Source of the DNA: Gemmatimonadales bacterium
Lineage (GTDB): Bacteria > Gemmatimonadota > Gemmatimonadetes > Gemmatimonadales > GWC2-71-9
Direction: 5' to 3'
Assembly (NCBI GenBank): GCA_050733195.1
Contig: JBOHSH010000021.1
Span: forward strand, 14,387 to 78,386
Length of the DNA stretch: 64,000 nucleotides
The translations under genes were made by a program, and so were the position numbers. Under the pieces are notes generated by a model. That model searched no databases. It had not been told where the DNA came from and was given only the letters and a program-made list of their open reading frames with translations. How positions within the stretch are numbered: the first letter of the stretch is position 1; each line of letters begins with the position of its first letter. This document shows positions 4,097 to 61,169 of the stretch, in pieces.

Positions 4097-5128
4097 GTGC
4101 CGAACACGCTCACCGACATCACGATCATCGGCGCAGGCCCGACCGGGCTCTTTGGCGCCTTCTACGCCGGCATGCGGGGCGCCTCGTGCCGGCTGGTCGA
4201 CGCGCTGCCGGCCCTCGGCGGCCAGCTCATGGCGCTCTACCCCGAGAAGTTCATCTTCGACGTGGCGGGGTTTCCCCGCGTGCTCGCGAAGGATCTCGTG
4301 AAGGACATGGCGGAGCAGGCGCTTCAGTTCGGCTGCGAAGTGCGCCTGGACGAGGTGGTGACGGCCCTCACGCGCGAGGGCGATGCCGGTCCGTCGGGGC
4401 ACTTCCTCCTCTCGACCGACCGCGCGGTCCATCCGACGCGCACGATCATCATCGCCGCGGGAATCGGCGCGTTCGAGCCGCGGAAGCTGCCCGCCGAGGG
4501 GCTGGAGCCGTGGGAAGGCCGCGGACTCTTCTACAAGGTTCTCGACCCGAAGCTGTTCGCCGGCCAGCGGGTCCTGGTCGTGGGGGGGGGCGATTCAGCC
4601 TTCGACTGGGTGGTGCACCTCGAGGATGTCGCCGCGTCCGTGATGCTTATCCACCGTCGCGACGGATTCCGGGCGCACATGGCGACGGTCCGGCAGGTCG
4701 AACGCATGCAGCGGCAGGGCAAGTGCGTCGTGCGGACCTTCTGCGAGGTGAAGGCCATCGAGGGGAACGAGAAAGTCGAGCGGGTGATCCTCCACGACAC
4801 CAAGACCGGCGCCCTCGATACTCTGCCCATCGACGCCGTCATCCCTCAGCTCGGCTTCCATTCCGACCTGGGTCCCATCAAGAGCTGGGGTCTCGATACC
4901 GAGAAGGCCGACATCAAGGTCGACCGGGTGATGCTCACCAGTGTCCCGGGGATTTACGCCGCGGGCGACATCGCGACCTACGAGGGCAAGCTCAAGCTGA
5001 TCGCGACGGGGGCGGCGGAGGCCTGCACGGCCGTGAACCACGCCGTGCACTGGCTCGACCCCAAGCGGAAGATGAACCCCGGGCACAGCTCGGAGCTCAA
5101 GATCTTCGCGACCCAGCAGCACGGCTAG
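4097..5128 (+). CDS. Ferredoxin-NADP+ reductase, thioredoxin-reductase-like type
   Basis: ITIIGAGPTGLFGAFYAGMRG...GGQLMALYPEKFIFDVAGFP and a second dinucleotide fold VLVVGGGDSAFDW. The length and C-terminus match the YumC-like family. Confidence 0.85.
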   Translation: MPNTLTDITIIGAGPTGLFGAFYAGMRGASCRLVDALPALGGQLMALYPEKFIFDVAGFPRVLAKDLVKDMAEQALQFGCEVRLDEVVTALTREGDAGPSGHFLLSTDRAVHPTRTIIIAAGIGAFEPRKLPAEGLEPWEGRGLFYKVLDPKLFAGQRVLVVGGGDSAFDWVVHLEDVAASVMLIHRRDGFRAHMATVRQVERMQRQGKCVVRTFCEVKAIEGNEKVERVILHDTKTGALDTLPIDAVIPQLGFHSDLGPIKSWGLDTEKADIKVDRVMLTSVPGIYAAGDIATYEGKLKLIATGAAEACTAVNHAVHWLDPKRKMNPGHSSELKIFATQQHG

Positions 5129-49005: not shown

Positions 49006-50271
49006 CTAAGGCCTGACCGCTACCAACGCGTAGTGGCGCCGTCCTTTCTGCAGCACGATGTAGCCGCCCGCCAGCACGTCGTCGGGCCCGAGCTTGCGGT
49101 CCGCGGCGGTCTTCTCGCCGTTCACCGCGAATCCGCTCTGCGCGAGCCCCCGGCGGGCATCCGCCTTGGAGGAGGCCAGACCGGCACCCACGAGGGCGTC
49201 GGCCAGCGGAACGCCGCTCTCGATATCGGCCGACCGGACCGAGTGCACCGGCACCTCGCCGCTCACCACGCGAAAGGTCTCCTCGTCTGCCGACCGGAGG
49301 TCGCCGCCGCCGAACAGGATCTCGCTCGCGGCGGTCACCCGGGCGGTGGTCGCCCTGCCGTGCACGGTCGCGGTGACCTCGCGCGCCAGCCGCCGCTGGG
49401 CGGGCCGGCGGCCGGGGTCGGTGGCCTGCTCGCGCATGATCCCGGAGATCTCCTCCAGCGGGAGAAAGGTGAAGATCCCGAGCAGGCGCTCCACGTCCCG
49501 GTCGTCGGTGTTGAGCCAGAACTGATAGAAGCGGTACGGGCTCGTGAGCGCGGGGTCGAGCCAGACGTTCTCGCCCTCGCTCTTCCCGAACTTGACGCCC
49601 GAAGCGGCGGTGAGCAGCGGGCAGACGAGCCCGTGCGCCGCCGCGCCTTCACGGCGCGCGATCAGCTCGATCCCGGCGGTGATGTTCCCCCATTGATCGC
49701 TCCCGCCGAGCTGGAGCTCGCATCCCTCGGTCCGGAACAGGTGATGGAAGTCGTGGGCCTGGACCAGCATGTACGCGAACTCGGTGAACGAGATTCCCGT
49801 CTCCATGCGGGCCCGGACCGATTCCTTCTGCAGCATGTAGTTGACGGTGAAGTGCTTCCCCGTCTCCCGGAGGAAGTCGAGCAGCGGCAGCGGCCGGAGC
49901 CATTCGGCGTTGTTGAGCAGCCGGGCGGCGTTCTTGCCTTCGAACGAGACGAACCGCTCGAGCTGCGCCCGCATGGCCGCGGCGTTGGCCTCGATCTGCT
50001 CCCGGGGGAGCACCGGCCGCTCGCTGCGCTTGCCGCTCGGGTCACCCACCATCCCGGTGCCTCCACCGACCAGCGCGATCGGGCGGCCGCCGAGCCGCTG
50101 CAGCCAGGCGACCGCCATCACCGGCACAAGGTTCCCCACATGCAGCGACTCGGCCGTCGGGTCGAAGCCGACGTACCCGGTAATGGGGCCCGCGGCGAGA
50201 CGGGACGCGAGGTCCGGCGTCGCGTCCTGGACCAGGCCGCGCTCGGTCAGAACTTCGAGAAGGGAGGGCAC
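49006..50271 (-). CDS. tyrS: Tyrosine--tRNA ligase
   Basis: [16 protein letters not shown] (HIGH), KFGKS (KMSKS) and a C-terminal S4 domain. The GTG start at 50271 is preferred over the ATG at 50307. Confidence 0.9.
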
Positions 50272-50325
50272 GGGGCAACAGTAGGGGGATGAGCGGGAAG
50301 CGGTCAATGTGTAGGGGGAGCGTGG

Positions 50326-50413
50326 GTGCTGAGTTCTGAGTTCTGGGTTCGAGCGCCTGCCGGGGTGTCATTCGCCGATCATGGCCGGATCCCAGAACTC
50401 AGAACCCAGAACC
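50326..50413. repeat. Heptamer array with inverted arms (4 x GTKCTGR-type, 39-nt core, 3 x CAGAACY)
   Basis: Read directly from the sequence. It lies in the divergent tyrS/PBP1A spacer and ends 15 nt before the PBP1A ATG. Confidence 0.9.
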
Positions 50414-50428
50414 CCTTACTTTTCCCCC

Positions 50429-52570
50429 ATGTCCGCCGCCCGCCTGTCCCGCTGGTGGCACACGCCGAGGCTCCGCCGGAAGTTCCTGATCGGGGCCGGG
50501 GCTGTGTCGTTGTTCTTCCTGGCCCTGGGCTGGGGGATATGGACCCGGGTGTGTGCCGGTGGCGTCTGTCCGTCCATCGCCGGCCTCACCAACTACGACC
50601 CCGAGCAGGCCTCGAAGGTGTACGCCGCCGACGGCCGGCTCATCACCGATTACGGCCAGCAGCGCCGCACGGTGATCGCGCTCAACCAGATGTCGCCCGC
50701 GGTGCCGGCCGCCTTCCTCGCGGTCGAGGATCAGCGCTTCTACCAGCACAACGGCGTCGACTGGATCCGGGTGATGGGCGCGGTCTGGAACAACCTCCGG
50801 GTGGCGCTCTTCGGAGGGAACCGCCAGGGGTTCTCCACCATCACGATGCAGCTCGCCGGCAATCTCTGGCCGGACGTGATCGATCGCCGGCAGCGGGAAG
50901 GCTTCGCCGGCCTGACCCGGAAGGTTCGCGAGATCCGGATGGCGTTCGAGATCGAGCGGAACTACTCGAAGGATCGGATCCTCGAGCTGTACCTCAATCA
51001 GATCAACCTGGGCAACGGCGCCTACGGCGTCGAGGCGGCCGCCCAGCGGTACTTCGGCAAGTCCGCCCGCACCGTGAACGTCGCCGAGGCGGCGATGCTC
51101 GCGGCGCTGCCCAAGGGTCCCGCGCGCTACAACCCGCGACGGAACCCGCGGCTCGCGGTCCAGCGGCGCAATCTGGTTATCACCATGCTCGAGGATTGGG
51201 GGAAGGTGACCCCGGAGTCGGCGGAGGCGTGGCGCGCCTACCCGCTGTCGCTGTCCTCCCGCTCCGATTACAGCGGCGTCGCCGAGTACTTCGTCGAGTA
51301 CGTGCGCCAGATCCTGTCCGCCCGGTTCGGCGCCGACCTCTACCGGGCCGGCTTCCGGATCCATACCACGATCGACCTCGACATGCAGGAGGCCGCGGAG
51401 CGGGCGCTCGAGCAGCAGCTCCAGGCGATCGAAGCGGGTGAGCTCGGGCACTACCCGCACCCGACCTATCGCCAGTACATCGAGACCCGGAAGGACCGGG
51501 AGAAGGACGAAGAGCAGGAGGTGGGGCCGTTCAGCCCCTACCTGCAGGGGCTCATGGTGACGATCGAGGCGAAGACCGGCTACATCCGCGCGATGGTGGG
51601 CGGCCGCGACTTCGAGGACAACAAGTACAACCGCGCCGCCCAGGGACTCCGCCAGGCGGGCTCGGCCTTCAAGCCGTTCGTCTACGCGGCCGCGCTGCGC
51701 GCCGGCATCCCGCTCTCCCAGGTCTTCGAGGACTCGCCGGTCTCGGTGACCATCCCCGACCAGCCGGTGTGGGAGCCCAAGAACTACGACAACCAGTTCG
51801 ACGGCCCCATGCCGATGCGGCGGGCCCTCTACATGTCGGTCAACACGATCGCCGTGCGCATCGGGCTCAAGCTCGGCGAGGAGGCCGTCATCGGCGAGGC
51901 GGCGAACTTCGGGATCACCACCCGGATTCCGGCCGTGCCCTCGATCTTCATCGGCTCGGCCGACGTGGTTCCGCTCGAGCTGATCGGCGCGTATACCGCG
52001 TTCGCGAACATGGGGGTGCGGACCACACCCCAGCCGATCCTCCGGGTGGAGGACCGCGAGGGAAACATCATCTGGCAGCCCGAGGTCAAGGAGAACCGCG
52101 TGATGGACCCCGATCACGCCTGGCTCATCCTCGACGCCATGCGTGACGTCGTCCGGCGCGGGACAGCGTACACCGCGGTAACCGGCCGCGGCTTCAACGT
52201 GCCCGCGGGCGGCAAGACCGGAACGACCAACGACGGAATGGACGTCTGGTTCGTCGGCTTCACCCCCGACCTCGTGACCGGGGTCTGGATGGGCTTCGAC
52301 CGGAAGACCAAGATCAAAGGCGACGCCCAGGGCGGAAAGCTCGCCGCCCCGGCCTGGACCGCGATGATGAAGGAGGTCTACGAGCGGCGGCCCGCGCCCG
52401 CGCCGTGGTTCATGCCGGACGGGATCTATCAGCTCGAGCTCGACCGCAGCACCGGCTTCCTGGCCACGCCGTTCTGCCCGCGGGACTCCGTCGCGCTCGA
52501 GTACTTCTACCCGGGTACCGAGCCGCTGGAGCGTTGTCCGATTCACAGCCCCTTCCGCGGCGGGCCGTAA
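50429..52570 (+). CDS. mrcA: Penicillin-binding protein 1A (bifunctional glycosyltransferase/transpeptidase)
   Basis: GT51 motifs AVEDQRFYQHNGVD, GFSTITMQLA, RKVREI; transpeptidase motifs SAFKP (SxxK) and KTGTT. N-terminal TM helix. Start at the ATG at 50429. Confidence 0.9.
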   Translation: MSAARLSRWWHTPRLRRKFLIGAGAVSLFFLALGWGIWTRVCAGGVCPSIAGLTNYDPEQASKVYAADGRLITDYGQQRRTVIALNQMSPAVPAAFLAVEDQRFYQHNGVDWIRVMGAVWNNLRVALFGGNRQGFSTITMQLAGNLWPDVIDRRQREGFAGLTRKVREIRMAFEIERNYSKDRILELYLNQINLGNGAYGVEAAAQRYFGKSARTVNVAEAAMLAALPKGPARYNPRRNPRLAVQRRNLVITMLEDWGKVTPESAEAWRAYPLSLSSRSDYSGVAEYFVEYVRQILSARFGADLYRAGFRIHTTIDLDMQEAAERALEQQLQAIEAGELGHYPHPTYRQYIETRKDREKDEEQEVGPFSPYLQGLMVTIEAKTGYIRAMVGGRDFEDNKYNRAAQGLRQAGSAFKPFVYAAALRAGIPLSQVFEDSPVSVTIPDQPVWEPKNYDNQFDGPMPMRRALYMSVNTIAVRIGLKLGEEAVIGEAANFGITTRIPAVPSIFIGSADVVPLELIGAYTAFANMGVRTTPQPILRVEDREGNIIWQPEVKENRVMDPDHAWLILDAMRDVVRRGTAYTAVTGRGFNVPAGGKTGTTNDGMDVWFVGFTPDLVTGVWMGFDRKTKIKGDAQGGKLAAPAWTAMMKEVYERRPAPAPWFMPDGIYQLELDRSTGFLATPFCPRDSVALEYFYPGTEPLERCPIHSPFRGGP

Positions 52571-52628: not shown

Positions 52629-53876
52629 ATGGCCGGCGCCCCGCTCCGCGACGCGGCGATCCTCGTCGACGAAGGCCGCATTGCCGCCGTCGGTCCGGAC
52701 TCCTCGGTGCCGGTGCCGGACGAAGCCCGGCGCGTTCACCTGGGCGAGGCGATCCTCCTCCCCGGTCTCATCAACACCCACACCCATCTCGAGCTCACGG
52801 GTCTCGACGCGGGGAGGCCCGACGATGATTTCACGGTCTGGATCCGGCGGATCCGCACCCTCAAGGAAGCGCGCACGGCGGAGGAGTACCGCGCCGCCGC
52901 GGAGCAGGGCCTCCGGGACTGCTGGGCCGGCGGCGTCACCACCGTCGCGGAGACCGGCGACTCGGGCGCGGTGCTGCGTGCGCTCGCCGAGCTCGGCGGG
53001 AGCGGAATCGTGTACCAGGAGGTCTTCGGACCCCACCCGGTCCAGGCGGAGGAGAGTCTGGACGGACTCCGCCGCAAGGTCGCGGGCCTTCGGCCCTGCG
53101 CACGCGACCGGGTTCGCATCGGCGTGTCGCCCCACGCGCCATACACGGTGAGCGGGATCCTCTACCGGGCCGTCGCACTGTGGGCGCGCTCGGAGGGACT
53201 CCCGCTCGCCGTGCACCTGGCCGAGTCGCGCGCGGAGACCGAGCTCGTCGCCACGGGAACCGGAGCCTTCGCGGAGGCGTGGACGAAGCGGGGGATTCCG
53301 GTGCCGGAGCAGACGGCCGGACGGCCGGACGGCCGGACGGCCGGTGGCTTCCATTCACCGGTGCGATACCTAGACTCTCTACGGGTCCTCGGTCCCGACA
53401 CGCTCTGCATCCACACCGTGCAGCTCGACGCCAAGGACGTGAAGGTGCTGGCTTCGCGCGGGGTGGCGATCGCCCATTGTCCGGTGTCGAACCGCCGGCA
53501 TGGCCACGGCGACGCCCCGCTCGACGCCCTCAGGAGGGCGGGGCTCCGGATCGGCGTGGGCACCGACTCGGTTGCCAGCGTGGGGCGGCTCGATCTCCTG
53601 GCCGAGGCGCGCGCCGCCCGGGGGCTCGCGGGTCTGTCGGCCGGGGAGGCGCTCGAGCTCTGCACCCTGGGCGCCGCCCGGGCGCTCGGACTCGAATCGG
53701 AGGTCGGGAGCCTGTCGCCCGGGAAATGGGCCGATCTGGCCGCCGTGGTTCCCGGCCCCGGAGCGGGCGATCCGGAGGAGGGGGCGCTGGCCGCGACCTC
53801 CGGAGACGTCGTCCTCACGGTCGTCGGGGGCCGGATCGTTCACGACCGCTTGATCCGGGGCCGGGGACTCTGGTAG
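52629..53876 (+). CDS. Metal-dependent amidohydrolase (chlorohydrolase / nucleoside-deaminase-like family)
   Basis: LLPGLINTHTHLELTG (HxH), VSPHAPYT, VHLAES, IHTVQL, GVGTDS. The exact substrate cannot be inferred. Confidence 0.75.
   Translation: MAGAPLRDAAILVDEGRIAAVGPDSSVPVPDEARRVHLGEAILLPGLINTHTHLELTGLDAGRPDDDFTVWIRRIRTLKEARTAEEYRAAAEQGLRDCWAGGVTTVAETGDSGAVLRALAELGGSGIVYQEVFGPHPVQAEESLDGLRRKVAGLRPCARDRVRIGVSPHAPYTVSGILYRAVALWARSEGLPLAVHLAESRAETELVATGTGAFAEAWTKRGIPVPEQTAGRPDGRTAGGFHSPVRYLDSLRVLGPDTLCIHTVQLDAKDVKVLASRGVAIAHCPVSNRRHGHGDAPLDALRRAGLRIGVGTDSVASVGRLDLLAEARAARGLAGLSAGEALELCTLGAARALGLESEVGSLSPGKWADLAAVVPGPGAGDPEEGALAATSGDVVLTVVGGRIVHDRLIRGRGLW
53312..53343. repeat. GACGGCCG octamer x4 inside the amidohydrolase CDS
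   Basis: Four perfect units encoding TAGRPDGRTAG. The same unit forms the arms of the repeat at 1086-1210. Confidence 0.9.
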
Positions 53877-53899: not shown

Positions 53900-54451
53900 A
53901 TGATCGTGCGCTGTCTGGCGCTCAACGCCTCTTACGAGCCGCTGACCATGGTGCCCCTCAGGCGGGCTCTGCGTTTGGTCATCGACGGCAAGGCGGAGAT
54001 CTATGAGGCCGACAGCGGCGAGCGCATTCGAAGTCCGCGGGTTTCTCTGCCGAAGCCCGCGATCATCCGGCTGGTCAAGTTCGTCCACGTTCCCCGCAAG
54101 TTCCGCCGGCAGGTCACCAACACCTTCCTCTTCGCGCGGGACGACTATCGCTGCCAGTACTGCGGGCGAGCGCAGCCCCAGCTCCGGGCGCGGGAGTGCC
54201 TGACCCGGGACCATCTCGTGCCGATGAGCAGGGGTGGGGGGAACCAGTGGACCAACTGCGTGACGGCCTGCAGCAGCTGCAACACCCGGAAGGGGAACCG
54301 GCTGCCGTCGGAGTGCGGGATGCACCCGATGCACTCGCCGGTCGAGCCTCACTTCGTACACCTGACCTGGGCCGTTCGGCGGCTCACGGCGGTGCAGATG
54401 AAGTACATCCGGTACTTCTACGGAGAGGCGGCGCTCCGGGCCATCCGGTAG
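53900..54451 (+). CDS. HNH endonuclease (McrA-like, standalone)
   Basis: Tail of ORF 53180..54451 from the ATG at 53900. RCQYCG...LTRDHLVPMSRGG.NQWTNCVTACSSCNTRKGN (HNH/zinc motif), with the conserved N-terminal LALNASYEPL domain. Confidence 0.85.
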   Translation: MIVRCLALNASYEPLTMVPLRRALRLVIDGKAEIYEADSGERIRSPRVSLPKPAIIRLVKFVHVPRKFRRQVTNTFLFARDDYRCQYCGRAQPQLRARECLTRDHLVPMSRGGGNQWTNCVTACSSCNTRKGNRLPSECGMHPMHSPVEPHFVHLTWAVRRLTAVQMKYIRYFYGEAALRAIR

Positions 54452-54458
54452 CCGGTCG

Positions 54459-55103
54459 CTATTCCGGCGTCCCCCCGATCGAGAACTTCTCGGTCCGCAT
54501 CTCGAGCTCTTCCCAGGGCAAACCGGCCATTCTGAGGAGCAGCCGGCGGAGACTCCGCGCCAGCGGGCTCCGCTCGCGCTGCGCGTTGGGCTGCCCCGCG
54601 AGGAACTGCTCGAGCTCGTCCATGTCCTCGTCCGTGAGCGCGGTGATTCTGAGCCGCACGGTGTAGTAGAAGCTTCCGGCCCTCCGGGGGAGCACCTCGA
54701 CACTCCGCGGCGTGGCCATGTAGCGCTCGAGCTCGGCCCGGGTCGGGAACCGGCTCTCCGTGGTTCCCGCCAGCAAAATGGTGGTGACGCGGTACTGCTC
54801 TTCGAGCGGCTCCCGCTGGATCACCATCGACCATTCCGTCGCCCGCTGGAACTCGTCGATCCAGCCCTCGCGCGAGCGCCAGATCTCCACCTTGAACGCC
54901 AGCCGGATCGGGAACGCCTGGTCGAGCGCTTCGGACCAGCGTTCGTCGCGCAGGAGGTTGGTGACGCGCACGAGGGGCTCCCGCCCCGTGCCGGGCGTGG
55001 CCGAGGGCATGAGGCTCACGACGAGCCCGACCCGCGGCGACTGGGCCGCCGCGGTGCCGCCGGCTCCGAAGACCAGCGCGAGAAGGAGTCCGGCGCGTCG
55101 CAT
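54459..55103 (-). CDS. Secreted DUF4390-like protein
   Basis: Tail of ORF 54459..55220 from the ATG at 55103 (signal peptide [21 protein letters not shown]). The assignment rests on my recollection of the family's block layout and needs an HMM check. Confidence 0.5.
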   Translation of the reverse strand: MRRAGLLLALVFGAGGTAAAQSPRVGLVVSLMPSATPGTGREPLVRVTNLLRDERWSEALDQAFPIRLAFKVEIWRSREGWIDEFQRATEWSMVIQREPLEEQYRVTTILLAGTTESRFPTRAELERYMATPRSVEVLPRRAGSFYYTVRLRITALTDEDMDELEQFLAGQPNAQRERSPLARSLRRLLLRMAGLPWEELEMRTEKFSIGGTPE

Positions 55104-56863
55104 CAGAAGCGGCGCTGCAGCCGGACGGTGATGGTGAGCGGCCGGCCGTCGGTGAACGGCTGCGCGATGTACACGCCGATGCCGCCGGCATCCATGCCGA
55201 AGCCGAGGTCGTACTTCCACTCGTCCAGGTTGGGGAGGCGGTCGCTCGGCACCCGGCCGGGTCCGTCACCCGCGAGCCACGCCTTGCCGGCGTCGCCGAA
55301 GATCACCACGTCCGGCTCGACGATGCCCAGCAGCCGCTGCAGCCCGGCCAGATAGGGGTCGTTCGTGCGGAGGGGCAGACCGATCCGGCTCCTCGTCCGC
55401 ACTTCCAGCTGGACCGCGAGGAGGCGATCGCAGAGCGCGGGGTGAGCCGGATCGCTGAGCGTCGGCGGGACACAGTTGAAGGCCCGGAACGGATAGCCCG
55501 GCAGGATGTCCGGACCGCCGAGCGACAGCCGCCGCTGCACCGGCAACGGATCGCCGTCGAGCCACCCGCCCCCGACGACGCGAAGGCTGGTCCGCACCGA
55601 CGGGTTGAACCGGGCGTACCGGCGGGCGTCGACCCAGAAGCTGGAGAACGCGTACCGCTCACCGGCCGGGACCGGGTCGCGGACGTCGGGCGGCAGCGAC
55701 AGCGGTGACGCGTCCGTGCTCCGGCCGTGCTCCACGCGGGCGCGAACGAGCCACCCGGCGGTCGGGTGCACGAGATCGTTCCGCGTGTCGAGCGCGAGGC
55801 CCGCCCGCCAGGTGGTGTAGTGGCCGTCGTCGATGAGCGCGTTGGGCCGCCACGCCTGGTTGCGGAGCAGCGAGATCGGATCGTTCGCGGGGATGCTCCG
55901 CTCCGCCGCGCGGTCGAGCGATCCCTCCAGGGTCAGGTGCCGGGTCAGCGCGTACGACGCGTACCCGCCCACACCGGTCGACTGTACGTAGTCGCGGTAG
56001 TCGCGCTGCAGGAGGAACGACGCCCAGCCGGCTTCGCTTCGGGAAAGCGGGCTCTCTTCCGTCGGAGTCACCAGCCGGTAGAGCCGGCCGCCGAGGAGGA
56101 GGCGGCGGGATTCCCCGAACCGGAACTCCAGGCGCGACAGGTACCCGAAGTCGGCGCGGCGGTCGGAGCGATCCGGCGCGGTCCAGACGATCCCGCGCAG
56201 GTCGAGCCGGCCGTCCACGTCGGGCAGTCCTTCGCGGGCGATGGTCGGTCCGAAGACGAGCGGCAGGCCTTCGATCCGGTTGTAGGTCCTGCCCGTCTCG
56301 ATGTTGATGGTGGTCGTGAAATGTCCGCTGGTGATCGTGCGCCTGGCGGACGCGATCTCCCCCAGCGTAATGGGGCGGTCGCGGATCGCGAGCGTGCCGT
56401 CGTTCGCGCGGTAGAGCTGCGGCGTCTCGGCGTAGGCCCGGCGAGTCCCGCCCGAGTGGAGGCCGCCGGGGCGGAGGTCGATGCGCCCTCCCACCACCAG
56501 GACGTCCCCCTCCACGGCGCCGCCCGGCTCGATGACGAGGTCGCCGTTGATCACCGTGAGGGATCCGGCGATGGTGCCCTGGACGCGCAGGTTGCCGCGA
56601 TAGACCGCGACGGTACCGGTGAGCCGGGCCCCCGGCGGGAGGACGAAGTGCCCGCTGATCCGCGCGGTGAGGGAGTCGTTCCAGGCCGCCACCGCCTGCA
56701 GCAGGACGCCCCGGGGAAGCACGCCCGGACCGAGCGAGTCCGGCGATCGGGCCTCGGGTCGGATCCGGATCGGGGGCGGGAGCGTATCCTGGGCGGCCGC
56801 TGCTGCCGGCGTCGCAAGAGCGAGCGAACCCAGAACCCAGAACCCAGAACTCAGAACCCTCAT
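55103..56863 (-). CDS. Omp85-family outer-membrane beta-barrel with N-terminal bactofilin-like beta-helix instead of POTRA domains
   Basis: Tail of ORF 55103..57646 from the ATG at 56863 (ATGA overlap with the regulator stop). Signal peptide [26 protein letters not shown]-x-hydrophobic repeats [49 protein letters not shown]. The barrel has [14 protein letters not shown] and a terminal ...TVRLQRRF. Confidence 0.7.
56824..56858. repeat. CAGAACC heptamer array (5 units) inside the first 13 codons of the Omp85-like gene
   Basis: Plus strand reads GCGAACC CAGAACC CAGAACC CAGAACT CAGAACC. The sense strand reads ATGAGGGTTCTGAGTTCTGGGTTCTGGGTTCTGGGTTCGC. Confidence 0.95.
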
Positions 56864-58236
56864 AGTCCCAGCCTCTTCATCCGCCGGTAGAGGTTCGCCC
56901 GGTCGGTCTGGAGCGCCCGCGCGGCCTCGGCGACGTTCCCGGCCGCCCGTTTGAGCGCCGCGCCGATCAGCGCCCGCTCGTAGTCGTCGAGCACGTTGGA
57001 CAGCGAGCGCCCGCCGAGGTCCGCGATCGAGAACGACGTCCCCGACTCGGTCACCGTCGGGGCCTCGAAGCGGGGCGCGCCGGCTCGCGGCAGCACCTGC
57101 CGGACGAGCGCGGCATCCACCTCCTCGCCCCCCAGGATCGAGAGCCGCTCGACGATGTTGGCGAGCTCCCGCACGTTCCCGGGCCATTCGTAGGAGGCGA
57201 GCAGCGCGAGCGCTTCCGCCGTGAACCGGACGGGCTGGTGGGGACGCACCCGCTCGGCGAGGTGGGCCACGAGCTCGTTCAGGTCCTCGAGGCGCTCGCG
57301 GAGCGGAGCCAGCTCGATGGGGAAGACGTTGAGGCGGAAGTAGAGGTCCTCGCGAAAGGTGCCCGCGGTGACCGCCTGCTCGAGACGCTGATTGGTAGCG
57401 GAGAGAACGCGGATGTCCACGCGCTGCGAGCGCTCCGCCCCGACCCGCTGGATCTCCCCGGTTTCCAGCACGCGCAGGAGCTTGGCCTGCGCCTCGAGGT
57501 TGAGGTCTCCGACCTCGTCCAGGAACAGCGTGCCGCCGTCCGCGAGCTCGAAGCGGCCCAGCCGACGGTCGGTGGCGCCGGTGAAGGCACCCCGTTCGTG
57601 GCCGAACATTTCGCTCTCGACCAGATCGCGGGGAATCGCGGCGCAATTGACGGAGACGAACGCCCGTCCCGCCCGGAGGCTCGCGCGATGAATGGCGTGG
57701 GCGACGAGCTCCTTCCCGGTGCCCGACTCCCCCATGATCAGCACCCGGGCTTCCGTGGGCGCCACCTGGCCGATCAGGCCGCGAACCGCCTGCATGCGCC
57801 CGCCCGCGCCCACGAGCTCGGCGCGGGGGCCGAGCTGCGATCGCAGAGCGCGGGCTTCCGCCCGGGCGCGGGTCAGCTCGAGTGCGGACCGCAGCGCCAC
57901 CAGCACCGCTTCCGGGGTGAGCGGCTTCTCGAGGAACTGGAAGGCGCCGAGCTTGATCGCGCGCACCGCGTCCGTGAGCTGCGCTTTGCCGCTCATCATG
58001 ATGACCGGCGTCGTGCCGTCGCGCTCCCGGATCTGCTTCAGGGTTTCGAGCCCGTCCGGGCCGGGCGGCATCTGCAGATCGAGCATGATGGCGTCGGGGT
58101 GTGCCTGGTCGAGCATCAGCAGCGCGGCATTGCCGTTGGGGGCCTCGTCCGCCTCGAATCCTTCCGAGCGGAGCAGGGCGGCGAGCATGCGGCGGATGTT
58201 CGCCTCGTCGTCCACGATGAGCACGCGGGGCTTCAT
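56860..58236 (-). CDS. Sigma-54-dependent response regulator (NtrC/NtrX family)
   Basis: Receiver domain VLIVDDE...[10 protein letters not shown]. Canonical AAA+ motifs [38 protein letters not shown]-terminal [25 protein letters not shown]. Confidence 0.9.
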
Positions 58237-59498
58237 TCGGTCCTCCGTCGCCGGTCGGCGACGCGACGTTCGATAGAGGGAGTGCGGGTCCCTACGGCGG
58301 GCGCGGCCTCGAGGGTTCGGGGGAGGCGGATCGTGAAGGTCGCACCGCCTCCCGGCGTCTCGGAAACCTCGATCGTTCCGCGATGGAAATCCACCGCCTG
58401 CTTCACGATGGCCAGGCCGAGCCCGGTGCCCCCCGCCTTGTCGGTGAAGTACGGCTCGAAGATCCGGCTCCGCTTCTCCGCCCGGACGCCGGGACCGTGA
58501 TCCGCCACCGACACGCGGACGCCGTCGCCGTCCGGAAGGATCGCGATGTCGAGCGCACCTGTTCCACCGCTCGACTCGGCCGCGTTCCGGATGATGTTGG
58601 CGAAGGCGCGCCGGAGCGGCTCATAGTGACCCACGATGTGCAGGCTCCCGGGGTGCTCCGCGATGGCCGCCCGCATCTCCGCGGGCAACGAGGTGCGGGC
58701 CAGCTCCCGCAGCAGCTCGCCCAGGTCCACCTCCGCCGCTGGACCCTCCGGCAAACGTCCGAGGTTGGCGAAGTCGCGGGCGAGCTGTTCCAGCCTCGCG
58801 GTCTCCACGCGGAGCACCTCGAGCGCTTCCTGATCGTCTGGGCGTGCCCCCCGACCCAGGGACTGAATGGCGAACCGCACCGGTGTGAGCGGGTTCTTCA
58901 TCTCGTGCGCCACCCGCCGGGCCACTTCCCGGAAGGCCCGGAGCCGCTCACCCTCGAGCTCGGCCGCGCGGGCTTGCTGGAGCGACGCCGCCAGCTCGCG
59001 AAGGGCGACCCGGAGCGCCGCCAGCTCCGGCGGGCCGCCGCGATCCGGGGTCTCCGGAAGCGGCTGGCTCCTGCGGATCCGGCCGGTCCAGCCGATCAGC
59101 TCGTCGATGGGATTGGCGAGCTGCCGGGAGAGGTTCCCGGCGAGCCGTACCGACAGGTAGACGAGGAGGGCGCCGAGCCCCGTGACCGCGATGGCCAGGG
59201 CGAACGCGCGGTAGCGGGCGAAGAAGAGGGCCCGGCGCGAGGTCGTCAGCGCCGCGTTGAGCGAATCGACGTGGGAGTGGAGTGCCCGCTGCTCCGGCCG
59301 GCTCAGCCTGGCGGTATCGAGCACCCTCAGGAGCTGCCGGCCGGAGCTCCGGACCGGCTCGAGTGCCGCCTGGCTGGCGCGGGCCGGGTTATAGCGCAGC
59401 AGGGTCGCGGCCCAGCCCACTATCAGCACCGAGGAGGGCAAGGCGCCGAGCAGGAGCAGGGCAATCAGGAGGCGGTGGCGAAACGAGAGGGCGGCCAC
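58233..59498 (-). CDS. Sensor histidine kinase (2 TM, HAMP, HisKA, HATPase_c)
   Basis: H-box [14 protein letters not shown]-box [10 protein letters not shown]-boxes DHGPGV and [13 protein letters not shown] overlap with the regulator start. Confidence 0.9.
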
Positions 59499-59530
59499 GT
59501 CCCGCTATAATACCCACCCCTCCCCAGGGC

Positions 59531-59546
59531 GGGCTTGGAGCTTGCG
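59531..59546 (+). promoter_or_regulatory. Candidate sigma-54 (-24/-12) promoter
   Basis: GGGCTTGGAGCTTGCG against the consensus TGGCACG-N4-TTGCW. GG and GC are correctly spaced and TTGC is intact. It lies about 90 nt upstream of the membrane-protein ATG. A perfect TATAAT also lies at 59506-59511 on the same strand. Confidence 0.3.
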
Positions 59547-59638
59547 GTGGGGTGTCTTACGGAATCCCCGGCCGCAATCCATAATTATCCGCAACCCGGT
59601 TCCGGCTTCGTTTCCCGCTCTTCCTCGGAAGGACCCCC

Positions 59639-60148
59639 ATGTCCGAGCGTGTAGTGCGCACGGCCCGTCCCGGCTCCGAAGCGGCCAGCGCCCTCGTGCC
59701 CACGCCTGAGCGCGCGTGGCGGATCGCCTGGTGGATGGGGCTCGTTTTCTTCGCGGTCGGGGCCGTCGACCTGCTGCTGGTGTGGTATCCGCCCAACTTC
59801 GGCACGGCGGAGTGGGAGTTCGGGTCCTCGGCCGCCATGCTCAACGGGCTCCCGGTCCCCACGCTGGGCGCGCTGCTGATGACCGCCTCCGCGGTTGCCC
59901 TCGGCTGGTCCTGGTACTTCTGGCCTGGCGTGGCGGTGCTCGTGCTCAGCTTCCTCGCGATCGTGGGCGCGGGCATTCTGTTCGGGACCACGTTCCCGAT
60001 CGCGCTCAAGGCCGTGACCGAGCCGGTACTGCTGACGGGGATCAAGAAAGCTGTCCTGAAATCGTTCCTCCAGGTGGGGCTTTACTCGGTTGCCTATCTC
60101 GGTGCGCTGAAACTGCTGTGGGGGTGGCGACCGAAGCGGGGGAAGTGA
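59639..60148 (+). CDS. Hypothetical integral membrane protein (about 4 TM)
   Basis: The hydrophobic segments IAWWMGLVFFAVGAVDLLLVW, LPVPTLGALLMTASAVALGW, WPGVAVLVLSFLAIVGAGILF and LQVGLYSVAYLGALKLLW. I recognise no family. Confidence 0.6.
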   Translation: MSERVVRTARPGSEAASALVPTPERAWRIAWWMGLVFFAVGAVDLLLVWYPPNFGTAEWEFGSSAAMLNGLPVPTLGALLMTASAVALGWSWYFWPGVAVLVLSFLAIVGAGILFGTTFPIALKAVTEPVLLTGIKKAVLKSFLQVGLYSVAYLGALKLLWGWRPKRGK

Positions 60149-60416: not shown

Positions 60417-61169
60417 ATGAAGCGTGCGCGCTACCTCGTCCTGCTCGGCGCTGTCGCGACAGCTCAGCCCGCGGCGGCCCTCGGCACGGCGACCTGGAAT
60501 CAGATCTGCAGCCAGGCCGGCCTTGGAATCGCCACCTTCGCGACGTGCGCCTCGGCGACCGTGAACGTCGCCGCGAACGGCATGGTGACGATCAACTACT
60601 GGAACCTGGCCGGCCTCAACGGCACCTTCGCCGACGCGATCATGACCGCGATCGGCCTCGAGAACATGCCGGGCATCACCGACATCCGGAACCTCACCGT
60701 GTTCCGGGTCGACGGCTCGACGTTCAGCGGCTGGACCATCGCGGGCGGCGGCGGCGGGATTCCGGGGCCGTCTATCGCTCTGGGTGCGACCACCAGCGGA
60801 ATCGGAGGCGGGGTCGCTAGCGAGTTCCACTCGGGTACTCCCGTCCAGGAGCAGACCGACTTCTCGAGCGGCTTCGGCTCCGGCTTCGTCCAGTTCAACT
60901 TCCAGACGGGGAGCTGCACGGGCAGCGGCAAGGGCCAGGTCTGCGTCTGGGGCATCGACTTCGATCCGAACGTGACCCGACTCGGGCTCCACGTTCAGGG
61001 CGGACCGAACGGGCAGTCGTCCGGGTACTCCTGCGCGCCGACCGGCGTCCAGGACGCGCTCTGTCTCCCGCCGACGGTCATCCCCGAGCCGATGACGCTC
61101 ACGCTGCTGGCGACCGGGCTCGTCGGTCTCGCTGGAGCCGGCTTCATGCGCCGTCGACGGAACAACTGA
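60417..61169 (+). CDS. PEP-CTERM sorting-domain secreted protein
   Basis: Signal peptide MKRARYLVLLGAVATAQPAAALG. The C-terminus VIPEPMTLTLLATGLVGLAGAGFMRRRRNN shows PEP, a TM helix and an Arg cluster. The middle is Gly/Ser-rich. Confidence 0.85.
   Translation: MKRARYLVLLGAVATAQPAAALGTATWNQICSQAGLGIATFATCASATVNVAANGMVTINYWNLAGLNGTFADAIMTAIGLENMPGITDIRNLTVFRVDGSTFSGWTIAGGGGGIPGPSIALGATTSGIGGGVASEFHSGTPVQEQTDFSSGFGSGFVQFNFQTGSCTGSGKGQVCVWGIDFDPNVTRLGLHVQGGPNGQSSGYSCAPTGVQDALCLPPTVIPEPMTLTLLATGLVGLAGAGFMRRRRNN

Follow-up and report, generated by a model that had tools for sequence, protein, structure and literature searches.

An operon of sampled Gemmatimonadota joins a two-component system to a predicted Omp85-type barrel and a DUF4390 protein

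The locus described here raises the question of why a two-component system should be encoded as one unit with an outer-membrane barrel and a small secreted protein of the family DUF4390. It lies in a window of 64,000 nucleotides (nt) from a Gemmatimonadales soil bacterium (GenBank assembly GCA_050733195.1, contig JBOHSH010000021.1, positions 14,387 to 78,386), the whole stretch of DNA that was analysed and to which all coordinates below refer. Four open reading frames on the minus strand fill 54459–59498, where a first-pass annotation had placed them, in a surrounding stretch of about 70% guanine plus cytosine (GC). They are transcribed from 59498 down to 54459 in the order histidine kinase, response regulator, barrel protein and DUF4390 protein, and this operon is found across the sampled Gemmatimonadota. 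DUF4390-assisted two-component signalling was already published in 2026 (PMC13001219) and is not categorically new. What is new here is the phylum, the architecture of the kinase, the gene order and the added Omp85 subfamily, which is undescribed in the literature searched.

The DUF4390 protein of Bordetella is PlrP, which carries a signal peptide (Wolber et al., J Bacteriol 2026; PMC13001219). [quoted passage not shown] All 94 of 94 good plrP homologues lie within 5 kb of a plrS homologue, and DUF4390 genes co-localise with ntrYX homologues in the beta- and gamma-proteobacteria (PMC13001219, from which the proteobacterial arrangement is known here). The order rsmB, DUF4390, ntrY, ntrX that the first-pass annotation had given for beta-proteobacteria is real (PMC13001219), and a Burkholderia lata operon likewise contains DUF4390, ribosomal RNA methyltransferase, regulator and kinase genes (PMC5192318). 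The same annotation had supposed that the link from DUF4390 to two-component systems crosses phyla, and with the Gemmatimonadota operon beside the published cluster it spans two; its statement that no function is established for DUF4390 is outdated by the PlrP genetics (PMC13001219).

All three gene junctions in the window overlap, as had been claimed, and each could be read directly. The kinase and regulator genes share an ATGA at 58236–58233 (GAATGAAG), the regulator and barrel genes share a second ATGA at 56863–56860 (CTATGAGG), and at the barrel/DUF4390 junction, which reads TGATG (TTCTGATGCGA), the single base at 55103 is common to the TGA and the ATG. GGAGG stands 5 nt upstream of the regulator start and AAGAGG 8 nt upstream of the barrel start. 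Direct reading found no purine-rich Shine–Dalgarno sequence upstream of the DUF4390 start, an absence consistent with ribosomes reinitiating there after they terminate on the barrel gene, although it is no proof of such a mechanism. Overlapping junctions are by themselves common in high-GC operons, and it is conservation, not the overlaps, that raises the operon above chance.

To assess conservation, one genome per GTDB species was scanned, which yielded 186 relatives of the barrel protein, and the best 80 loci were scored with local hidden Markov models. Among loci whose contig reaches far enough, the DUF4390 gene lies 3' of the barrel gene in 73 of 73 (one flagged solely through a coordinate artefact), the regulator gene lies 5' of the barrel gene in 69 of 69, and the kinase gene lies 5' of the regulator gene in 62 of 62. 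With start codons picked heuristically, the overlap of four bases recurs at the kinase/regulator junction in 35 of 70 loci and at the regulator/barrel junction in 34 of 78, and the single-base overlap between the barrel and DUF4390 genes recurs in 39 of 80. The compact unit that had been proposed is thus borne out, its order held at every scorable locus and its overlaps in about half. The gap between the barrel and DUF4390 genes never exceeds 150 nt in the 80 loci; this is the tightest of the three junctions, and barrel and DUF4390 are the tightest pair. All named homologues of these two proteins are from Gemmatimonadota. A deep DUF4390 profile search gave 396 representatives, of which 20 were looked up and 5 placed, Longimicrobium by its source name and L006, L088, L089 and the P0241 contig by the context of the locus, all of them Gemmatimonadota-type.

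Within the Gemmatimonadales, synteny is unspecific for the four-gene unit because a neighbouring block of about 10 kb, encoding an HNH endonuclease, an amidohydrolase, PBP1A and the tyrosyl-tRNA synthetase TyrS, is as conserved as the operon (53 of 53, 52 of 53 and 52 of 53 loci, with TyrS in most loci). The deeper loci are therefore decisive. L088, from a stromatolite metagenome, and L091, on a 4.46-Mb contig, contain all four genes among wholly different neighbours, so that the four genes do stand together in related genomes, as the first-pass annotation would lead one to expect. In L007, a Longimicrobium-like contig, the regulator, barrel and DUF4390 genes are kept without an adjacent kinase gene, and these three are taken as the invariant core for this reason. 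The HNH-to-TyrS block is not beside the module in L007, L088 or L091. The locus L024 (CAVRAZ010000007.1) is labelled "uncultured Gammaproteobacteria bacterium"; its sequence is the same as that of L002 and includes everything from kinase to TyrS in the Gemmatimonadales arrangement, and the taxonomic label of this metagenome-assembled genome (MAG) is probably wrong.

The third gene (55103–56863, minus strand, as are all features of the operon) starts with the ATG that overlaps the regulator stop and encodes an outer-membrane protein of 586 amino acids with the C-terminal end RLQRRF. Its signal peptide, read directly (residues 1–24, 56792–56863), ends in PAAAAA before QD, and Q25 and D26 are near-invariant among 57 homologues. 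These homologues were also used to build an AlphaFold2 model, with an overall predicted local distance difference test (pLDDT) value of 77.5. The mature N-terminus (residues 25–47, 56723–56791) is conserved, with the consensus AQDT..VIRPEA...DS and invariant P36 and D42 in the 57 homologues, and is predicted to be disordered (pLDDT below 50 at residues 16–47); it is a candidate docking motif that the deeper lineages do not share. A helix at residues 51–66, which holds a conserved Y/F-N-D-S motif with invariant N-D-S, precedes a bactofilin-like beta-helix at residues 67–160 (56384–56665), modelled as 15 short strands in about five turns, with invariant G90, G96, G100, G119, G125 and G126 and with pLDDT mostly above 90 and at 84–87 toward the C-terminal end. 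A modelled linker of about 12 residues leads to a predicted 16-strand Omp85-type barrel (residues 172–586, 55106–56350), assigned from the AlphaFold2 model, Foldseek and sequence motifs.

In Pfam, the window protein falls just under the gathering cut-offs, with 21.7 bits against 24 for Omp85 (PF01103, residues 344–461, E 1.7e-4) and 23.4 bits against 27.9 for Bactofilin (PF04519, residues 75–122, E 7.5e-5). Both sub-threshold calls are supported because family-level matches and the AlphaFold2 model agree with them: Omp85 is matched in 56 of the 57 homologues at E below 0.01 (best 6.5e-11), many homologues carrying a precomputed PF01103, and Bactofilin in 32 of 57 (best 7.9e-8), with DUF5686 matched weakly in 11. 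POTRA was matched neither by the window protein, even with E values up to 1 admitted, nor by any of the 57 homologues, and the modelled N-terminus consists of the helix and the beta-helix, with no beta-alpha-alpha-beta-beta domain. Among PDB structures, the best Foldseek matches to the barrel are BamA, Sam50 and Toc75 (E 7e-10 to 1e-8, probability 1.0); against the BamA barrel 6fsu_B the E value is 7.4e-10 and the target-normalised TM-score 0.54, and TM-scores reach 0.61 when normalised to barrel-only targets. Sequence comparison with the PDB gave a marginal match of the whole protein to Fusobacterium BamA 9ccg (E 0.2), and the top two matches of the beta-helix profile, both non-significant, are the bactofilins 6ria and 2n3d (E 0.14 and 0.73). 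The barrel keeps an FGDAG motif (superfamily (F/G)xDxG) and the terminal Phe, both conserved, together with a loop-6-like LGG..LPGY, assigned by eye, that has Pro at the Arg position of (V/I)RG(Y/F).

As modelled, then, the third gene product is an exported barrel of the Omp85 superfamily with a bactofilin-like beta-helix in place of POTRA, in agreement with the earlier claim of a POTRA-less Omp85 barrel with a C-terminal Phe. The bactofilin-like N-terminus claimed alongside it stands as a beta-helix repeat and in the family-level Pfam matches, but not as a cytoskeletal bactofilin: it cannot be a cytoplasmic cytoskeletal polymer because a signal peptide precedes the domain and an outer-membrane barrel is fused after it. 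Omp85 subfamilies have been classified as those with POTRA, with WD40/peptidase, with metalloprotease or with no N-terminal domain, and a beta-helix or bactofilin-type N-terminus is not described among the N-terminal types in the available excerpts of these surveys (PMC4104836, PMC11358297). In the literature library searched, no paper contains both "bactofilin" and "Omp85".

Adjoining the loop-6-like motif is an invariant pair of cysteines, C464 and C478 (55427–55474; FNCVPP...ALCDR), which the deep lineages keep as DCGAR...GCDR; their conservation suggests a disulfide in a barrel loop. The NCBI entry ACRENB_02085 (P0001, 539 amino acids), from a Gemmatimonadales MAG and named "hypothetical", is 100% identical to the barrel protein. 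Its start lies 47 codons 3' of the ATG that overlaps the regulator gene, so that both the signal peptide and the conserved start of the mature protein (56723–56863) are missing from it; the alignment of 57 homologues favours the longer start.

The fourth gene (54459–55103), whose ATG shares one base with the barrel TGA, encodes a protein of 214 amino acids that had been suspected to be DUF4390, and Pfam places it there at 39.8 bits against a cut-off of 27 (PF14334, residues 54–154, E 4.2e-10). PF14334 is also matched in 52 of 62 diverse relatives (best 7.3e-13). A signal peptide at residues 1–20, with a hydrophobic core, an AxA site and an invariant Q21, could be read directly, and the same reading found no lipobox Cys. 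The AlphaFold2 model is confident (pLDDT 85.9), and neither a structure search nor a sequence profile of the protein gave a significant match to the PDB. The best fold match, to LolA, is non-significant (E 0.019, probability 0.28, TM-score 0.16), and LolA- or RseB-like lipid binding by DUF4390 is speculation.

Relatives of the two exported proteins are named inconsistently (P0436, P0476, P0023, P0035, P0139 and P0140). Barrel homologues appear variously as "polymer-forming cytoskeletal protein", "cytoskeletal protein CcmA (bactofilin family)", "BamA/TamA family outer membrane protein", "outer membrane protein assembly factor BamA" and "hypothetical", and two DUF4390 homologues are labelled "dsDNA-binding SOS-regulon protein" by JGI. 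The 503-residue "DUF4390 fusion" P0291 (L090, ERZ25039547 contig_177042) is no real fusion but the product of a long-read assembly full of frameshifts, in which every gene of the block is split over several frames.

The first gene (58233–59498) has a GTG start and encodes a sensor histidine kinase of 421 amino acids (Pfam HisKA 5.5e-12, HATPase_c 2.6e-26), for which hydropathy and conservation over 64 orthologues indicate a first transmembrane segment at about 9–33, a periplasmic loop at about 34–96 and a second transmembrane segment at about 97–120. These are followed by a weak, marginal Pfam match to HAMP at 123–175, HisKA at 191–251 and HATPase_c at 292–395. The H-box is HEMKN (residues 198–202, H198) and follows the HExxN pattern, from which the kinase appears to be of the bifunctional kinase/phosphatase type; the H-box of PlrS, HEIKN, is cited as the mark of a bifunctional kinase (PMC13001219). 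The periplasmic loop of about 62 residues (59211–59399) is the fastest-evolving part of the module, with a mean distance of 1.12 against 0.48 for the cytoplasmic part of the kinase and only a few conserved positions (GR.L, D61, E69, AL and H76). The Pfam matches with an E value of 1 or less include none to NtrY_N, PDC or PAS, and among solved structures the catalytic cores of ZraS, CpxA and EnvZ come nearest. With its two transmembrane segments and short loop, the kinase is, by sequence, not NtrY-like.

The second gene (56860–58236), whose start overlaps the kinase stop, encodes 458 amino acids and matches Response_reg (4.4e-30), Sigma54_activat (1.8e-69) and HTH_8 (8.1e-10), all well above the Pfam cut-offs. 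Its layout is a receiver domain at 5–115 (D53), an AAA+ domain at 142–308 with Walker A GESGTGKE and an intact GAFTGA at 216–221, and HTH_8 at 416–456; it is a sigma-54 enhancer-binding response regulator of the NtrC family. Equivalog scores are near-equal for NtrC (415.1 bits), AtoC (395.9) and NtrX (391.6) and are all below the cut-offs (600 for NtrX). The nearest solved structures are Aquifex NtrC4 and NtrC1, FleQ and, as fifth best, Brucella NtrX, and the regulator is not demonstrably an NtrX orthologue. Unlike the beta-proteobacterial pair that the first-pass annotation had mentioned, the two are not of the NtrY/NtrX type: the kinase is without NtrY_N, PDC and PAS, and the regulator scores alike against three families.

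Considered together, these genes may form a three-component system of the PlrP type extended by an outer-membrane partner, in which a PlrP-like modulator of the kinase is tied to the barrel. This is the reading that we favour, tentatively and by analogy. In it, DUF4390 would be a third component, located in the periplasm, that adjusts how far the sensor kinase acts as kinase or as phosphatase, as inferred from PlrP; the barrel would bind or sequester DUF4390 via the N-terminal beta-helix, which is assumed to face the periplasm, or via the conserved N-terminal peptide. Availability of DUF4390 would in this way be linked to the condition of the outer membrane, so that the kinase, and through it sigma-54-dependent transcription, would be informed of the state of that membrane. 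The barrel is proposed as the partner of DUF4390 because the two genes are coupled and the kinase is without a recognisable sensor domain; it is plausible from the sequence that the kinase delegates sensing to partner proteins. The tight barrel–DUF4390 junction without a Shine–Dalgarno sequence agrees with two subunits being made together. Links to the cell envelope have also been described repeatedly for NtrYX systems and for sigma-54 regulons (PMC7240162, PMC3162934). A more specific form, rather unlikely as it stands, is a four-component relay in which an Omp85 barrel has been recruited for signalling, its beta-helix holding DUF4390 at the outer membrane and perturbation of that membrane releasing or capturing it, which would flip the kinase between phosphatase and kinase modes. 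Gene context and analogy suggest, but do not prove, an envelope-spanning signalling chain.

Several observations weigh against the favoured reading. In mirror-tree partial correlations over 36 genomes, in which the positive control (cytoplasmic part of the kinase against the regulator) reached 0.53, DUF4390 correlated with the kinase loop at 0.41 and with the barrel at 0.40, not above the unrelated HNH gene at 0.42, and with the beta-helix at 0.14. The kinase is the least tightly bound member, because it is detached in L007 and separated from the regulator in L080 (4285–5442) and, at the same position, in L083 by the gene for a 385-residue signal-peptide protein on the opposite strand. The kinase–regulator junction, where L006 and L043 carry a 68-residue open reading frame (4689–4895), is the only one of the three with insertions. 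To our knowledge, no Omp85-family protein acts in signalling. Searches for sigma-54 promoters yielded none close to the operon in the window and none that stood up in the regulator-to-barrel stretch of the 80 loci. By their sequences, kinase and regulator are not demonstrably orthologues of NtrY and NtrX, and PlrP is thought to act via the PDC domain of PlrS (PMC13001219), which the kinase here does not have.

The barrel and DUF4390 could instead be output rather than input, forming a machine for outer-membrane biogenesis or transport, in the manner of a BamA/TamA-like or LptD/LptE-like barrel with an accessory subunit, plug or chaperone, while the two-component system only controls or autoregulates expression; the genetic link between DUF4390 and the kinase in proteobacteria would then stem from a role in the envelope, the loss of which is registered by the kinase. 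In the Omp85 superfamily, all characterised members serve to assemble or translocate proteins (PMC11358297, PMC4104836), and the barrel retains superfamily motifs such as FGDAG and, in the model, the superfamily fold. Its junction with DUF4390 is tighter than that between regulator and kinase, which is detachable. On the other hand, proteobacterial DUF4390 has no barrel partner, and its essentiality hinges on the phosphatase activity and periplasmic domain of the kinase (PMC13001219); nor was an internal sigma-54 promoter found that would place the barrel and DUF4390 under the regulator. Two further hints of an output role, the very weak LolA match and the conserved PBP1A neighbour, are offset in turn, the match being non-significant and the PBP1A gene lying on the other strand and being lost in L007, L088 and L091. 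We regard this alternative as somewhat unlikely.

A device of the type V secretion kind is considerably less probable. Here, the beta-helix would be a passenger brought to the surface via the barrel (cf. the patatin domain of PlpD, type Vd), or DUF4390 would be a TpsA-like cargo, with the two-component system regulating expression. A beta-helix is the typical fold of autotransporter passengers and TpsA proteins, the passenger-then-barrel order is that of types Va and Vd, and adjacent barrel and cargo genes recall two-partner secretion, an option discussed for POTRA-less Omp85 proteins in PMC11358297. However, type Vd and TpsB transporters do not work without at least one POTRA, of which none is present; no more than about 12 residues link the helix to the barrel; with about 95 residues, the beta-helix is small, and it resembles that of bactofilins rather than that of pertactin; BamA, Sam50 and Toc75 make up the Foldseek matches listed; and PlrP is periplasmic in the published model (PMC13001219). 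That the four genes form no functional unit at all, their synteny being inherited in a slowly rearranging region and their overlaps ordinary at 70% GC, is highly improbable. It is true that conservation in the Gemmatimonadales extends over the full 10 kb, with the HNH, amidohydrolase, PBP1A and TyrS genes included, but three deeper lineages keep the module with every flanking gene different, the common strand and overlapping junctions recur in about half of 80 species, and another phylum shows an independent link of DUF4390 to kinase/regulator pairs (PMC13001219).

Upstream of the kinase gene, 140 bp at 59499–59638 separate it from a divergent membrane-protein gene and are presumed to be the promoter region of the operon. 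Conservation of synteny ends on this side, with the genes beyond varying between loci. When this sequence was read, no sigma-70-like or sigma-54-like consensus match was seen in it, and a scan of 54200–59800 for sigma-70 promoters and terminators detected nothing. A search of the window for sigma-54 promoters (TGGCAC-N5-TTGC) matched less often than in shuffled sequence, and nowhere close to the operon. The sole recurrent match in the regulator-to-barrel stretch across the 80 loci, CGGCGCGGGCGCTGCA, was rejected as a promoter; it corresponds to the codons for AARALQ in the helix-turn-helix of the regulator. The divergent neighbour (59639–60148) encodes a membrane protein of 169 amino acids with no Pfam match. 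Farther on, the gene at 60417–61169 (plus strand) encodes a protein of 250 amino acids, also with no Pfam match, that has an N-terminal signal peptide and an end, PEPMTLTLLATGLVGLAGAGFMRRRRNN, that resembles a PEP-CTERM sorting signal. At the other side, the HNH endonuclease gene (53900–54451, plus strand) runs toward the DUF4390 gene, only 7 nt separating their stop codons, and beyond it follow the genes for the amidohydrolase (52629–53876, plus), PBP1A (50381–52570, plus) and TyrS (49006–50307, minus). The HNH nuclease gene is fixed beside the operon in the Gemmatimonadales.

The operon extends the association of DUF4390 with kinases to a second, distant phylum; until now, DUF4390 had been linked to the control of an NtrYX-type kinase genetically in one genus. 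Because the kinase architecture differs in the Gemmatimonadota, the link is a property of DUF4390 rather than of NtrY. The operon further offers a candidate physical partner for DUF4390, the Omp85-type barrel with its presumably periplasmic beta-helix, and the question of what DUF4390 senses becomes testable by binding and genetics. If a barrel-held DUF4390 relay were true, it would suggest that DUF4390 proteins generally report the state of the envelope to their kinases. For the Omp85 superfamily, tied so far to protein assembly and secretion, a subfamily whose N-terminal module is neither POTRA nor absent widens the known architecture. Annotations are also corrected, both the inconsistent names of the barrel relatives and the database entry of the window protein without its signal peptide.

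Among known systems, the closest is PlrP–PlrS–PlrR, with which the operon shares a secreted protein of about 200 residues that is nearly all DUF4390, clustered with an HExxN kinase and an NtrC-family regulator, with 4-bp overlaps and strict co-localisation across many genomes. It differs from the Bordetella order rsmB-plrP-plrS-plrR in that DUF4390 comes last rather than 5' of the kinase and rsmB is not adjacent. Where PlrS has PDC, HAMP and PAS, the kinase here has two transmembrane segments and a loop of about 62 residues, and a gene for an Omp85-type barrel stands between regulator and DUF4390. PlrPSR is proteobacterial, whereas the present operon belongs to the Gemmatimonadota. The first-pass annotation had described the DUF4390 system as having acquired an outer-membrane partner; the partner is there, in that the barrel is present in every Gemmatimonadota locus examined and not in the published proteobacterial cluster, but "acquired" presumes an evolutionary direction. 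In concept the operon also resembles Caulobacter NtrZ–NtrY–NtrX, in which a small periplasmic protein lowers NtrY phosphatase activity with an NtrC-family output (cited in PMC13001219). However, NtrZ is not a DUF4390 protein, is not encoded beside its kinase and has no outer-membrane partner.

With the "noNterm", metalloprotease-Omp85 and WD40/peptidase-Omp85 subfamilies (Heinz and Lithgow 2014, PMC4104836) and the noNterm paralogues of Leptospira (PMC11358297), the barrel protein shares a predicted 16-strand barrel, superfamily motifs such as FGDAG and a lack of POTRA. As far as the available excerpts of these sources describe them, it is distinguished by a structured, bactofilin-like beta-helix module and by being fixed in a two-component operon. 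Like the bactofilins BacA, CcmA and Thermus bactofilin, it has a glycine-punctuated triangular beta-helix repeat, and some of its relatives pass the Pfam model. Unlike them, it has only about five turns, placed behind a signal peptide and fused to a barrel, and the window protein itself is under the Pfam cut-off.

In the Rcs system, RcsF is threaded through BamA and other outer-membrane proteins and signals to IgaA, and FecA–FecR is a system of cell-surface signalling. The components of both are non-homologous to those described here, save for the Omp85 fold of BamA, and RcsF is a lipoprotein whereas the DUF4390 protein has no lipobox. It is in their logic that they may, speculatively, resemble the Gemmatimonadota operon, as in each a barrel and a small envelope protein would report the status of the outer membrane to a signalling protein of the inner membrane.

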